In this document: piece after piece, positions 24,537 to 28,126 of the stretch
Position numbering within the stretch: the stretch's first letter is position 1
Layout of the letters: the number at the start of each line of letters is the position of its first letter
Source: a bacterium
Lineage (GTDB): Bacteria; Patescibacteriota; Minisyncoccia; Phycocordibacterales; Phycocordibacteraceae
DNA length: 28,126 nt
NCBI GenBank assembly: GCA_043806295.1
Contig: JAZDHA010000024.1
Location: forward strand, 1 to 28,126
Direction: 5' to 3'
Made by a program: the position numbers and the translations under genes
The notes under the pieces: generated by a model
Seen by the model: the letters and a program-made list of their open reading frames with translations, nothing else
The model's database searches: none
Told to the model about the DNA's origin: nothing

Positions 24537-24565
24537 GTATGTATTATAAAAATTTATCAATTCTC

Positions 24566-27500
24566 ATGAAAAATTACATCGTTGGTGCGGTTATCGCGCT
24601 CGGTCTTGTCGTTTCTCCGTCATTTACTCAAGCAGCGGGTCTCACGGACTCACAGGTGCAAGCAATTCTCTCACTACTTTCATCATTTGGCGCAAATCAG
24701 TTGGTTATTGATAATGTGAATACAGCGCTCACTGGCGGTACATCATCAACCGGTGGTGATTTCTGCTACAACTTTAAGAACGACCTAACCTTTGGGGTTG
24801 CTGGTGGTAATGATATACACAATCTCTACCTCGCCCTAAAACTCCCATTTCCTACAGAAGGAATGGTGACTTTCGATGAAGACACTGCCGCTGCAGTTGT
24901 TCGTTTCCAGGCAAAACATGGCATTCGCCAGACCGGTTATGTCGGCCCTCTCACACGCGCGAAGTTGAATAGTTTGTATGGGTGTAATGATGTTAATCCA
25001 CCACAAACTTCTTCACTTACTGTGACGAAATACTCTGGCTTTGGCGATCAAACAGTGGTTGCAGGTACGGCTAATGCAAGAATTGGTTCTTTCAAATTCA
25101 CAGTCAACTCGCCCAACGGAATGAATATCACTCAAATAGGCCTTCCACTTACTGGTGCATCTAATGTCAGAAATCTAGTGATAAAAGAGCACAACCTTGG
25201 TATCCAAATAGGTTCTACAATAGCGACGCCGTCATCTTACAACACCATCACTGTGCCAAGTAATTTTGTGACTGCGCCGATTGGGTACTCTGAGACAACT
25301 TATGACATATATGGCGATATCCCGACAAACGCTTCAGGAACTATCCAAGCATCGGCATCGATCTTCGGTACAGACCTCGTATCCGGAGTATCGTATTCAT
25401 CATCGGACAAAGGAGCAATTACACTCCAGAATGTCACGATCGGTACCAGTTCACTCATAGTCGCTCGTGGTTCGAGTGAACCGACTTCGAGAAACATCAC
25501 TATGGGTGATAGTTCAGTTCCGATTGGTCAATTCAAATTCTCTGCTCTGAACTCAGCGCACACAGTCCAAAATGTCAAAATTCTCGTTCCAAACAATGTC
25601 TCGAATTCGGTCACGGCCGTGATGGTTCGATATAGAGATGTTAATGGTTCAATGCAAACAGCAACACAAGCATTAACATCAAATCTTGGCTATACATATG
25701 CAATAGCATATTTTTCAGGTCTCACAATGTATGTTCCGGCAAATGGATCAGCTAATCTTGATGTGCTGATTAACACAGCAACTGTTGCGATGGGTGGAAC
25801 TCCTGGTGCGATAGTACGAGCCGAATTCGATACAAGTGGATTTAATGCTGTTGATAGTTCCGGAACCGTCTTAACTCAAATCAATGGTGGTGTAAACATT
25901 ACTGCTGGAGGTATGTTCACTCTTACTAATCTCGCCACCCCCGCGCCGACACTGCCGGACCTGTATTTTTCCGGTAATGTTATTGATACCGCGAGCGCTC
26001 CCGCAAATTCCTTCGCGATTAACCTCTGCAACAAAGGCGCTCGTTTAACACAGGTTAGCACTCTCGGTTCCATTCTATTGAATGTTGCGGCAAATGGAAT
26101 AACGCGAGGAGGAATGGGTTATGGCGCTTCCATTGAGTCCAATCAATGTGTGAAAATCGGTTACTACAAATATTCCGATTTTGGAATGACGGCGGGAAGT
26201 AGTTATCAAATAACTATTACGGCAGATAGCGCGCAAAAATATCAGGAAGCCGATGAAAATAATAATGTCGTTGTTGCTCCTTTCAGTATTTCGGCAACCA
26301 CCGCGCCGGCGATTACTGTCACATCACCGAACGGAGGAGAGACATGGCAAGCAGGGTCTGTTCATAGGGTAAGTTGGAGCAATAATACTGGTAAAAATGT
26401 TAGAATTGAATTAATAAAGGGAAATAATTACATTACTGACTGGGGGTCATTGTCGTCTTTAAGTTCAGGCTATGACATTACACTTTCGTCTTCGTTGCAA
26501 GTAGGCTCGGACTATAAAATCCGTATTGCGAGCCTCGATTCCAGTGGAGGTGCGAATTATGTTTATTATGATGATAGTGACAATTATTTCACTATCACTA
26601 ATTCAACAATCCCGACTCCCGCGCCGACGACCTTAAGCGTGGACCTAAAAGTAAACGGTTCAGATAGTCCGTCCGCAATTCCTTATGATTCAACATTTGC
26701 CGCTTCTTGGACCTCAACAGGTGCTATCAATTGCTCCGCTTCCGGTCATTATGTACCAGTAAGTGACGGCGGTTTGTGGACAGATTTATCCAATCTGCCG
26801 ACTTCCGGGAGCAAAACGCTTACCGCGCGGCATAATACCTACGGATATATAACGCCGTTGCAGTTGACAGTTCAGTGCATCAATGGTAATAATGCATCAA
26901 TATCTGATACCGTTTATGTGCCGGTTACCCAAAACCTCGCACCGATAATTACCGTTCTTTCGCCGAACGGGGGAGAAGTATGGCAAAAAGGTCCAACAAA
27001 TTATCCAGTAACTTGGAAATGGACTAGTAGCATTGCTAAATTTAATATGTATTTAATAAACCCCAATACAGGAGGGAGAATTGCACAGGTGGGAGTAGGG
27101 GTTGATGTTGGAGAAGGTAAAACTTATATTGGAATAGCCGATGTTCCTGCCAATGCATTTATTGTACCAGGAAGTTATAAGCTTGAAATTTGTGATGCTT
27201 CTAATGATGGTTTAGTGTGTGATTCCAGCGATGTGGCGTTCAGCATCGTGGCGGCAACCCCCGCGCCGACAGTGACACTTACGGCAAATCCGGCGAGCGT
27301 GAATTATGGCCAGTCAACGACACTTACTTGGTCCTCGACAAACGCGAATTCTTGTTCCGTCGATCCTTTATTTGAAGGCAATGCAACAAGCAAAGTTGTA
27401 TCAGCTAGCCCAACCCAAACGACAACATACACCGCTACTTGTACTGGCGCAGGCGGGTCAACATCAAAAAGTGTGACGGTAGCTGTTGCCACTTCGCAAG

Positions 27501-28126
27501 AATTAAGTTCTAGCGCTCTTAAAATATCGTATTCCAATATGGATAAATCAGGCGCATATAGGAGGTTCTATGATCCGAAGATTGTGTATAACGGTCAAAT
27601 ATTCGATTATTACATTCACTACAGCGATTCGGGTGCGTTCTGTAAACTGTACGGTACAAGTGTGTATGGGCCATCTTCCAGTATGTCGACAAGCGCGACA
27701 AGCGGTTGGAATGTTGAAGGAGACAGCGGCAAATTCTATCTACGCAATGGAGCATATACCCCGCTGTTAACAGCACAGTGCGGTGATATAGGCGTCCCGT
27801 CTTCTTCTATCTTGGGGCTAATAGGAGGAGCGAGTTCTATGGCGAATGCACTCGGCGCTCTCGATAGTTTGGCGGCGAACAATTCTGGTTCGCAAACACA
27901 AACTGGTTTCTCGTATAACTGGAGTCGCGATCTTCAAATCGGCTCGCCATATCTTGAAGATGTGAAGTCACTACAGACGGCACTGACAAAAGAAGGCGTC
28001 TACTCTGGTGAGATAACCGGCGGGTTCTACAATCAAACATATTGGGCAGTTCAGGCCTTCCAGCAAAAATACGGTATTAATTCAACCGGCTATGTAGGTG
28101 CTCTCACACGAGAAAAACTGAATTCG
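24566..28126 (+). CDS. Large secreted modular surface protein (>=1187 aa, 3' end outside the window): signal peptide, two peptidoglycan-binding domains, CARDB-like, two SPNGGE Ig-like and PKD-like modules
   Basis: Translated by hand from ATG 24566 to the window end with no stop. Signal peptide ends FTQA|AGLT. PG-binding repeats end TGYVGPLTRAKLNS and TGYVGALTREKLNS. Other motifs: ADSAQKYQEADENNN; ITVTSPNGGETW and ITVLSPNGGEVW. Confidence 0.92.
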   Translation, partial: MKNYIVGAVIALGLVVSPSFTQAAGLTDSQVQAILSLLSSFGANQLVIDNVNTALTGGTSSTGGDFCYNFKNDLTFGVAGGNDIHNLYLALKLPFPTEGMVTFDEDTAAAVVRFQAKHGIRQTGYVGPLTRAKLNSLYGCNDVNPPQTSSLTVTKYSGFGDQTVVAGTANARIGSFKFTVNSPNGMNITQIGLPLTGASNVRNLVIKEHNLGIQIGSTIATPSSYNTITVPSNFVTAPIGYSETTYDIYGDIPTNASGTIQASASIFGTDLVSGVSYSSSDKGAITLQNVTIGTSSLIVARGSSEPTSRNITMGDSSVPIGQFKFSALNSAHTVQNVKILVPNNVSNSVTAVMVRYRDVNGSMQTATQALTSNLGYTYAIAYFSGLTMYVPANGSANLDVLINTATVAMGGTPGAIVRAEFDTSGFNAVDSSGTVLTQINGGVNITAGGMFTLTNLATPAPTLPDLYFSGNVIDTASAPANSFAINLCNKGARLTQVSTLGSILLNVAANGITRGGMGYGASIESNQCVKIGYYKYSDFGMTAGSSYQITITADSAQKYQEADENNNVVVAPFSISATTAPAITVTSPNGGETWQAGSVHRVSWSNNTGKNVRIELIKGNNYITDWGSLSSLSSGYDITLSSSLQVGSDYKIRIASLDSSGGANYVYYDDSDNYFTITNSTIPTPAPTTLSVDLKVNGSDSPSAIPYDSTFAASWTSTGAINCSASGHYVPVSDGGLWTDLSNLPTSGSKTLTARHNTYGYITPLQLTVQCINGNNASISDTVYVPVTQNLAPIITVLSPNGGEVWQKGPTNYPVTWKWTSSIAKFNMYLINPNTGGRIAQVGVGVDVGEGKTYIGIADVPANAFIVPGSYKLEICDASNDGLVCDSSDVAFSIVAATPAPTVTLTANPASVNYGQSTTLTWSSTNANSCSVDPLFEGNATSKVVSASPTQTTTYTATCTGAGGSTSKSVTVAVATSQELSSSALKISYSNMDKSGAYRRFYDPKIVYNGQIFDYYIHYSDSGAFCKLYGTSVYGPSSSMSTSATSGWNVEGDSGKFYLRNGAYTPLLTAQCGDIGVPSSSILGLIGGASSMANALGALDSLAANNSGSQTQTGFSYNWSRDLQIGSPYLEDVKSLQTALTKEGVYSGEITGGFYNQTYWAVQAFQQKYGINSTGYVGALTREKLNS
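25937..27271 (+). repeat. Dispersed 15-nt linker repeat ACCCCCGCGCCGACA at module junctions
   Basis: Copies at 25937 and 27257 (identical), 26615 (13/15), 26297 (12/15) and 26933 (11/15); all in the same codon phase. Confidence 0.75.

Follow-up and report, generated by a model that had tools for sequence, protein, structure and literature searches.

Can short DNA sequences at the borders of protein modules serve as sites at which whole modules are exchanged in frame? The question is raised by P0001, a gene for a modular secreted surface protein at the end of contig JAZDHA010000024.1 (GenBank assembly GCA_043806295.1), from a bacterium of the family Phycocordibacteraceae in the phylum Patescibacteriota. 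We analysed the entire contig, 28,126 nucleotides (nt) long and hereafter called the window; it is contig C24 of an assembly of 566,680 bases in 78 contigs, with 44% GC and about 94% complete. Five consecutive module junctions of P0001 (J1 to J5) carry copies of a 15-nt sequence with the consensus ACC CCC GCG CCG ACN, encoding a short Pro/Ala/Thr spacer, and the peptide together with codon bias does not account for how well these copies are conserved as DNA. In our best reading, to which we give about an even chance, they are passive recombination junctions resembling the recer sequences proposed for the protein PAB, protein L and protein G genes.

Five consecutive module junctions carry copies of one sequence

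The initial annotation had described five consecutive copies of the linker, and all five are present at the positions and with the sequences that it gave (Table 1), spaced 360, 318, 318 and 324 nt apart. It had also reported two identical copies 1.3 kb apart, which are J1 and J5 (1320 nt between them), and a shared GCG CCG in four copies, which are J1, J2, J3 and J5. The repeats are direct, in frame and not inverted. Their common codon phase, though correctly noted, is trivial because all five copies sit in a single open reading frame (ORF), 24539-28126. The limits of J1 to J5 agree with the limits of the Pfam Kre9_KNH domains and with homology blocks that begin at 26630, extend from 26948 to 27254, and begin at 27494. 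That the motif stands at every module junction was overstated: it is missing from the borders between the peptidoglycan (PG)-binding domain and module A, between modules A and B, and between modules M5 and M6.

The exact 15-mer occurs twice in the whole assembly, both times in P0001. With up to 3 mismatches, 4 matches are found in the window against 0.42 expected, and 13 genome-wide against about 6 expected, 4 of the 13 lying in the P0001 gene. One further copy in the same genome, at C69:6072-6086 on the minus strand, reads ACT CCC GCG CCG TCA (TPAPS) and lies in a stop-to-stop frame near or upstream of an ORF start. We rejected this TPAPS/CCCGCGCCG copy as a junction and consider it a chance match, the ORF being ribonucleotide-reductase-like by reading of its translation.

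The junctions are conserved at silent codon positions

Comparison of the linker codons with those of the gene and the genome, a check that had been proposed for this locus, showed that ordinary codon bias is insufficient to explain the repeats. Genome-wide, CCC is the rarest proline codon (8.8% of Pro), GCG makes up 27.6% of Ala codons and CCG 31.7% of Pro codons, and the pair GCGCCG accounts for 9.6% of Ala-Pro dicodons. In the P0001 gene outside the junctions, 3 of the 42 Pro codons are CCC. We resampled synonymous codons for the five junction peptides, following either genome usage or the gene's own usage. The codon concordance observed among the five junctions was reached in 1.6e-4 of the trials with genome usage and in 5.3e-4 with gene usage, and a pair of identical 15-mers arose in 0.5-0.8% of trials.

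The modules, by contrast with the junctions that they adjoin, are saturated at silent sites. Between modules, nucleotide identity is 34-46%, and identical residues share the same codon in about 35-40% of cases, the pair M2/M4 being highest at 50%. The modules had been described as unrelated or strongly diverged; strong divergence is borne out by these identities, but M2 resembles M4 in being Kre9_KNH-like, and M3 resembles M5 in being an immunoglobulin (Ig)-like module that contains Cys.

The same junction DNA joins unlike modules in two further genes

Junction bases of the form ACY CCC GCR CCG ACN also join unlike modules in P0121, on contig L033, and in a gene of another member of the same genus, G186:C20. 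Two module borders of P0121 read ACT CCC GCG CCG ACG and ACC CCC GCG CCG ACT. In the G186 gene, three of five borders encode TPAPT (ACC CCC GCG CCG ACC; ACC CCC GCG CCG ACG; ACC CCC GCA CCG ACG), and the other two read ACC ACA GCA CCG ACA and ACC CTC GCG CCG ACC. The Thr and Leu (CTC) variants of the window junctions are thus paralleled in the G186 gene, with TLAPT there against NLAPI at J4. One G186 junction matches the window exactly over 18 nt at J1 (25933-25950).

Across the three genes, CCC occupies the first proline of TPAPT in 8 of 8 cases versus 9 of 94 other prolines (Fisher p = 1e-7). The full combination CCC GCG CCG is found in 7 of the 8 TPAPT junctions versus 0 of 17 P-A-P linkers of other related genes (p = 1.7e-5), and the single P-A-P linker of P0029 lacks it as well, bringing the count to 0 of 18 linkers in 13 genes. 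Four silent positions are retained in 7 of the 8 TPAPT junctions. The last Thr codon, on the other hand, is free to vary, with ACA, ACG, ACT and ACC all represented. TPAPT-like peptides are frequent ahead of Ig-like modules in relatives, where they are written with other codons, and TPTPT is also used.

The three genes come from divergent organisms. BipA of G186 is just 81% identical in amino acids (aa) to that of the window, no nearer than in other members of the genus, and G186 is therefore not a close strain; the GC content at third codon positions is 0.56 for its junction gene versus 0.38 for the window gene. The L033 organism is more distant, a neighbouring MacB-like gene being 51% aa identical to that of the window. 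Genes whose C-terminal anchors are 71-73% identical to the anchor of P0001 are without the motif, and the G186 gene, with an anchor 58-59% identical, carries it; the distribution of the motif does not follow anchor similarity. As a side observation, the genes downstream of the G186 junction gene (L078:3066-6785) are syntenic, at 67-73% nt identity, with C70:12202-15884 of the window's own genome and not with the window contig, so that the surroundings of the two genes with junctions differ between the genomes.

A scan of 222 genomes of the genus gave 32 matches versus 11 for controls; most fall in short frames, and a single conserved stretch that recurs accounts for several of these. Apart from the genome of the window itself, G186 alone had matches at module junctions, and three more in-frame matches fell in Pro-rich stretches of other long ORFs. 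Across 400 genomes of the order, the pattern ACCCCCGCGCCGAC had 4 matches, and in no long ORF did one fall at a module junction; three of the four are in short frames within a similar stretch that recurs, which probably represents a conserved gene read in another frame or on the other strand. No orthologue of P0001 with the same architecture was found in 40 relatives, in Joint Genome Institute (JGI) metagenome contigs, or among the near-length and shorter proteins of a 5.8-billion-protein set, nor was an orthologue of the G186 junction gene found among 95 high-quality genomes of the genus.

Modules recur in other genes, and one strain diverges at J5

The modules are mosaic: two of those in P0001, M4 (at 81% nt identity) and M6 (at 86%), are found again in genes whose context is unrelated. 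For M4, the block of similarity at 26948-27254 lies exactly between J4 and J5 and is 81% identical in nt to a module of P0047 and of P0068, in which the neighbouring modules are different; the blastn blocks are 26948-27254 (L105) and 26948-27231 (L013). Contigs of sequencing run X3 follow M4 up to 27255 and then switch to a third, unlike linker. A relative of M3 in P0122 is 67% identical in nt over 26630-26850, starting from the first base after J3, and is preceded there by a TPTPT linker written with other codons.

M6 is very rare, with 3 relatives among 1.84 billion representative proteins. It matches the C-terminal module of P0121 (L033:2338-2661) at 86% nt and 88% aa identity, despite the distance between the two organisms, and thus looks like a recent lateral transfer of a single module. 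In L033 the similarity to M6 begins 8 nt after a TPAPT junction.

Run X1 contains a strain close to that of the window. Over 26134-27270 there are 4 differences in 727 positions, including 0 of 68 in the last stretch to 27270. From 27271 on, 11 of 83 positions differ (about 13%), mostly third codon positions (Fisher p = 7e-9), and four of these third-position changes fall within 27271-27283, the 13 nt that begin at the last base of J5. Outside the interval from J1 to J5 (25470-25540 and 27647-27808), identity is 87-90%. This pattern fits an exchanged block that ends at J5 and perhaps starts at J1. Separately, run X1 carries G>A at 26309, which turns J2 from TTAPA into TTAPT, nearer to the consensus.

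The module-order variants that the initial annotation had proposed to look for did not appear. No alternative joints, deletions or reorderings of modules, and no contig joining across modules, were found in four runs (X1 to X4), which consist of short contigs rather than reads at a depth of 2-5x with partial cover.

A recer-like reading of the junctions

The earlier proposal that the junctions are recombination sites gains from their conservation as DNA, from their sharing with two other genes, from the recurrence of modules and from the step in divergence at J5. Its central part, exchange at the 15-mer itself, is the part that we infer: crossovers would fall inside the 15-mer and would be the cause of its conservation. 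Short in-frame homologies, conserved at the nucleotide level, would lie at module borders, and ordinary host recombination using them would swap, add or remove whole modules while the frame is kept. The route may be short-homology or homology-facilitated illegitimate recombination, possibly following DNA uptake, with the junction carried along in each successful exchange. Such events would take place on an evolutionary timescale, between lineages, and would involve no programmed switch.

A stronger version of this reading is possible, though we think it doubtful. It would have the joint actively maintained as a lineage-spanning, DNA-level 'splice site', in which a pool of Patescibacteria surface genes shares one 14-15-nt in-frame sequence and modules acquired from other cells are inserted into resident adhesin genes by short-homology recombination. 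Type IV pilin-like proteins are encoded on the contig of P0001. If true, bacteria would have an equivalent of exon shuffling with which episymbionts diversify their host-attachment proteins.

Several points weigh against a recer-like role. No crossover inside any junction was seen directly, and RecA-dependent exchange usually requires more than 14-15 nt to be efficient. The relatives of M4 in P0047 and P0068 have other linkers on their flanks, and the 15-mer is therefore not needed for module exchange. M6, though it is the clearest case of a transferred module, lacks any trace of a junction on its left flank in the window. Similarity blocks that end at domain borders are in any case expected for any domain family. 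The evidence of run X1 at J5 comes from one 151-nt contig at a depth of about 2, which may be chimeric, assembled from two strains that occur together. No orthologues were found from which silent-site rates at the junctions could be taken. Finally, the modules beside the shared junctions are 25-40% identical between the three genes, and the identity of the junctions therefore predates any recent transfer or is decoupled from it, which would need selection or repeated conversion.

Alternative explanations

The alternative that survives best, although we judge it unlikely, is identity by descent, with no role in recombination. One ancestral linker would have been copied whenever a module was duplicated or transferred; its peptide would be under constraint, and the silent positions would have been kept by history, hitch-hiking or weak local mutation. 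Consistent with this account, J2 (12/15) and J4 (11/15) look like decayed copies of one 15-mer, the related pairs M2/M4 and M3/M5 fit an old duplication of a two-module unit, and the final Thr codon varies freely. Descent predicts, however, that junctions and modules diverge equally, yet the adjoining modules are silent-site saturated and all but one of the 8 TPAPT junctions retain the four silent positions across organisms as divergent as G186 and that of L033.

Quite unlikely, in our view, is a constraint on the bases themselves other than recombination, for example a translational pause at a rare CCC between domains that aids co-translational folding or secretion, or a binding site in the mRNA or DNA. 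The low share of CCC among proline codons is in line with a pause, as is its placement in the G186 gene, which has 4 CCC codons, 3 of them in junctions, and the conservation extends across divergent genomes. Against it, GCG and CCG are not rare in the genome, and no local RNA structure is predicted, with z-scores of -0.7 to +1.3 at all five junctions. None of the 18 P-A-P linkers of other related genes uses these codons, which are therefore not a general requirement. The tRNA set of the assembly is incomplete, with 33 tRNAs and no tRNA-Pro, and is uninformative on decoding. The same lack of a junction hairpin, together with the lack of dispersal, led us to reject a mobile hairpin resembling repetitive extragenic palindromes and their associated tyrosine transposases (REP/RAYT), or any dispersed repeat family.

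Programmed variation of the vlsE/pilE cassette type or the shufflon type, with the 15-mers as recombinase sites or as sites of conversion from silent cassettes, is very improbable. The repeats are direct and in frame, two copies are identical, and in an assembly of 78 contigs repeated donor loci could have remained unassembled. A search of the assembly with P0001 (tblastn) nevertheless matched 24539-28126 alone, so the paralogues or silent cassettes bounded by the 15-mer that the initial annotation had envisaged were not found, and the 15-mer lies nowhere else in the assembly. The annotation's remark that no recombinase is visible holds for what was scanned: Pfam found none among 20 larger ORFs upstream of the gene, which encode pilin-like proteins, LigA, GatA, a MacB-type exporter, Nramp, BipA, SmpB, FtsH and RecG. 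Nor did the four runs contain alternative joints, at their low depth. With no silent cassettes, recombinase, rearranged contigs or genome-wide copies of the 15-mer found in these searches, the locus is very probably not a programmed cassette system, and that part of the earlier proposal is not supported. A shufflon of the Rci/sfx type, in particular, does not fit the direct orientation of the repeats or the lack of a recombinase in the scanned ORFs.

Chance, combined with the usual bias in codons or codon pairs where a Pro/Thr/Ala linker is common, could appeal to the frequency of TPAPT-type linkers as peptides in relatives, to the post hoc choice of the pattern and to the chance occurrence of CCCGCGCCG in the ribonucleotide-reductase-like ORF on C69, but it is scarcely credible, being refuted by the within-gene simulation (p 2e-4 to 5e-4) and by recurrence in two more genes (joint probability about 3e-15 from each gene's own codon usage).

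Relation to known systems and significance

To our knowledge, in-frame domain shuffling in intron-less genomes is sketchily understood, and hardly any work has built on the recer idea since 1996. Recer sequences are said to have been described by de Chateau and Bjorck, in PNAS, in the protein PAB, protein L and protein G genes of Finegoldia magna and streptococci. In a later paper that cites this work, they are presented as 15-bp direct repeats at module borders, through which genes for albumin-binding proteins were proposed to shuffle domains without introns (PMC3467074, citing de Chateau & Bjorck 1996). Compared with recer sequences, the window junctions are alike in being in-frame direct repeats of about 15 nt at module borders of a surface gene, conserved as DNA, common to genes with different modules and coding for a short spacer; in both cases the modules are mosaic between genes and species. 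They differ in sequence (ACC CCC GCG CCG ACN, TPAPT), in phylum (Patescibacteria, or candidate phyla radiation, CPR) and in their modules, which are beta-sandwiches here and helical bundles in the recer genes, and exchange at the junction is less well documented in the window gene. The best fit is thus a further case of the known but little-studied recer type.

Movement of whole domains by recombination at short conserved flanking DNA is also described for restriction-modification genes of Helicobacter pylori, in which target-recognition domains move between non-orthologous genes via conserved flanks of 8-117 bp (PMC3467074, Furuta & Kobayashi 2012). Unlike the window junctions, these flanks code for catalytic motifs and are not linkers repeated within one gene.

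Short conserved DNA repeats that bound variable segments of a surface-protein gene likewise recall vlsE and pilE/pilS, although for the window gene neither donors nor population variants were found (low-depth contigs). In Borrelia, vlsE has 17-bp direct repeats at its cassette borders, and both vlsE and pilE/pilS of Neisseria draw on silent donor arrays and switch at high frequency. A last comparison is with the Pro/Thr-rich interdomain linkers of cellulases and scaffoldins, which are conserved, if at all, as composition or peptide. These too are short Pro/Thr/Ala spacers between independently folding extracellular modules, but in the window junctions silent codon positions are fixed as well.

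Patescibacteria are dependent on contact between their surface and host cells, and the proteins exposed there show extreme variability. Module exchange can be studied with a concrete sequence in this junction, whose silent positions are fixed in three genes although the lineages are divergent, and which is also a practical marker for recognizing, in metagenomes, adhesin genes that have been shuffled. Should something else underlie the conservation, the junctions would still be an unusually clear case of silent-site selection in a linker.

Organization of the modular gene

P0001 is the sole long ORF at the end of the window and is open at the contig edge, with 1196 aa read. Its 3' end is probably short by a few codons; the G186 relative stops 5 residues past the equivalent point. 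The protein fits the PG_binding_1-anchored surface proteins of Patescibacteria, which combine a signal peptide, PG_binding_1 and a chain of Ig-like modules, and related genes are present in metagenome-assembled genomes (MAGs) of Kaiserbacteria and Paceibacterota. We infer that it is a wall-anchored, adhesin-like protein of the cell surface, in which a chain of small beta-sandwich modules lies between two PG-binding domains (Table 1). PG_binding_1 is recognized with a Pfam E-value of 5e-23 (two stretches), and P0121 is 34% identical to module A.

Table 1. Features of the P0001 gene in the window, with the five junctions
Feature	Position	Strand	Sequence, family or basis
Modular secreted surface protein gene P0001	24539..28126	+	ORF; Pfam: PG_binding_1 at both ends, Kre9_KNH, weak CARDB
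Probable Sec signal peptide	24539..24634	+	Translation read by eye; hydrophobic core, ...FTQA|A, putative cleavage site
N-terminal PG_binding_1 domain	24761..24982	+	Pfam, two stretches; aligns with PG-binding regions of P0121 and P0122
Modules A and B, mutually related, about 150 aa each	25013..25936	+	Translation; A/B alignment score 51; joint without motif
J1	25937..25951	+	ACC CCC GCG CCG ACA (TPAPT)
Module M1, weakly CARDB-like	25952..26296	+	Pfam CARDB E = 0.0032, residues 545-578
J2	26297..26311	+	ACC ACC GCG CCG GCG (TTAPA); 12/15 bases as J1
Module M2, Kre9_KNH-like Ig fold	26312..26614	+	Pfam PF10342 E = 2.6e-8, residues 596-674
J3	26615..26629	+	ACT CCC GCG CCG ACG (TPAPT)
Module M3, Ig-like with Cys	26630..26932	+	nt alignment to P0122 relative
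J4	26933..26947	+	AAC CTC GCA CCG ATA (NLAPI); decayed copy, 11/15 bases as J1
Module M4, Kre9_KNH-like	26948..27256	+	blastn blocks versus L105 and L013
J5	27257..27271	+	ACC CCC GCG CCG ACA (TPAPT); same 15 bases as J1
Module M5, Ig-like, 'TLTWSSTNANSC' type	27272..27493	+	Type frequent as tandem arrays in relatives
Module M6, very rare	27494..27817	+	86% nt / 88% aa to C-terminal module of P0121; no junction motif on left
C-terminal PG_binding_1 anchor	27956..28120	+	Pfam residues 1140-1194; anchors of related genes 57-73% aa identical

The Pro/Ala/Thr composition of the linker suggests a flexible spacer, on which a structural model could not tell: a single-sequence AlphaFold2 (AF2) model of residues 455-1000 has a mean predicted local distance difference test score (pLDDT) of 42.5, too poor for linker limits, and M5 alone, beginning at J5, is modelled with confidence.

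Directly after the signal peptide (24635-24760) lies a short motif, 'LT..QVQAILSLLSSFGA...', that relatives also have in surface proteins: G005 (L002) carries two tandem copies and G031 (L009) one. At the other end of the window, 219-1411 holds two neighbouring ORFs with a type IV pilin/pseudopilin N-terminal methylation motif (PF07963), which may belong to DNA-uptake or attachment machinery on the contig of the modular gene.

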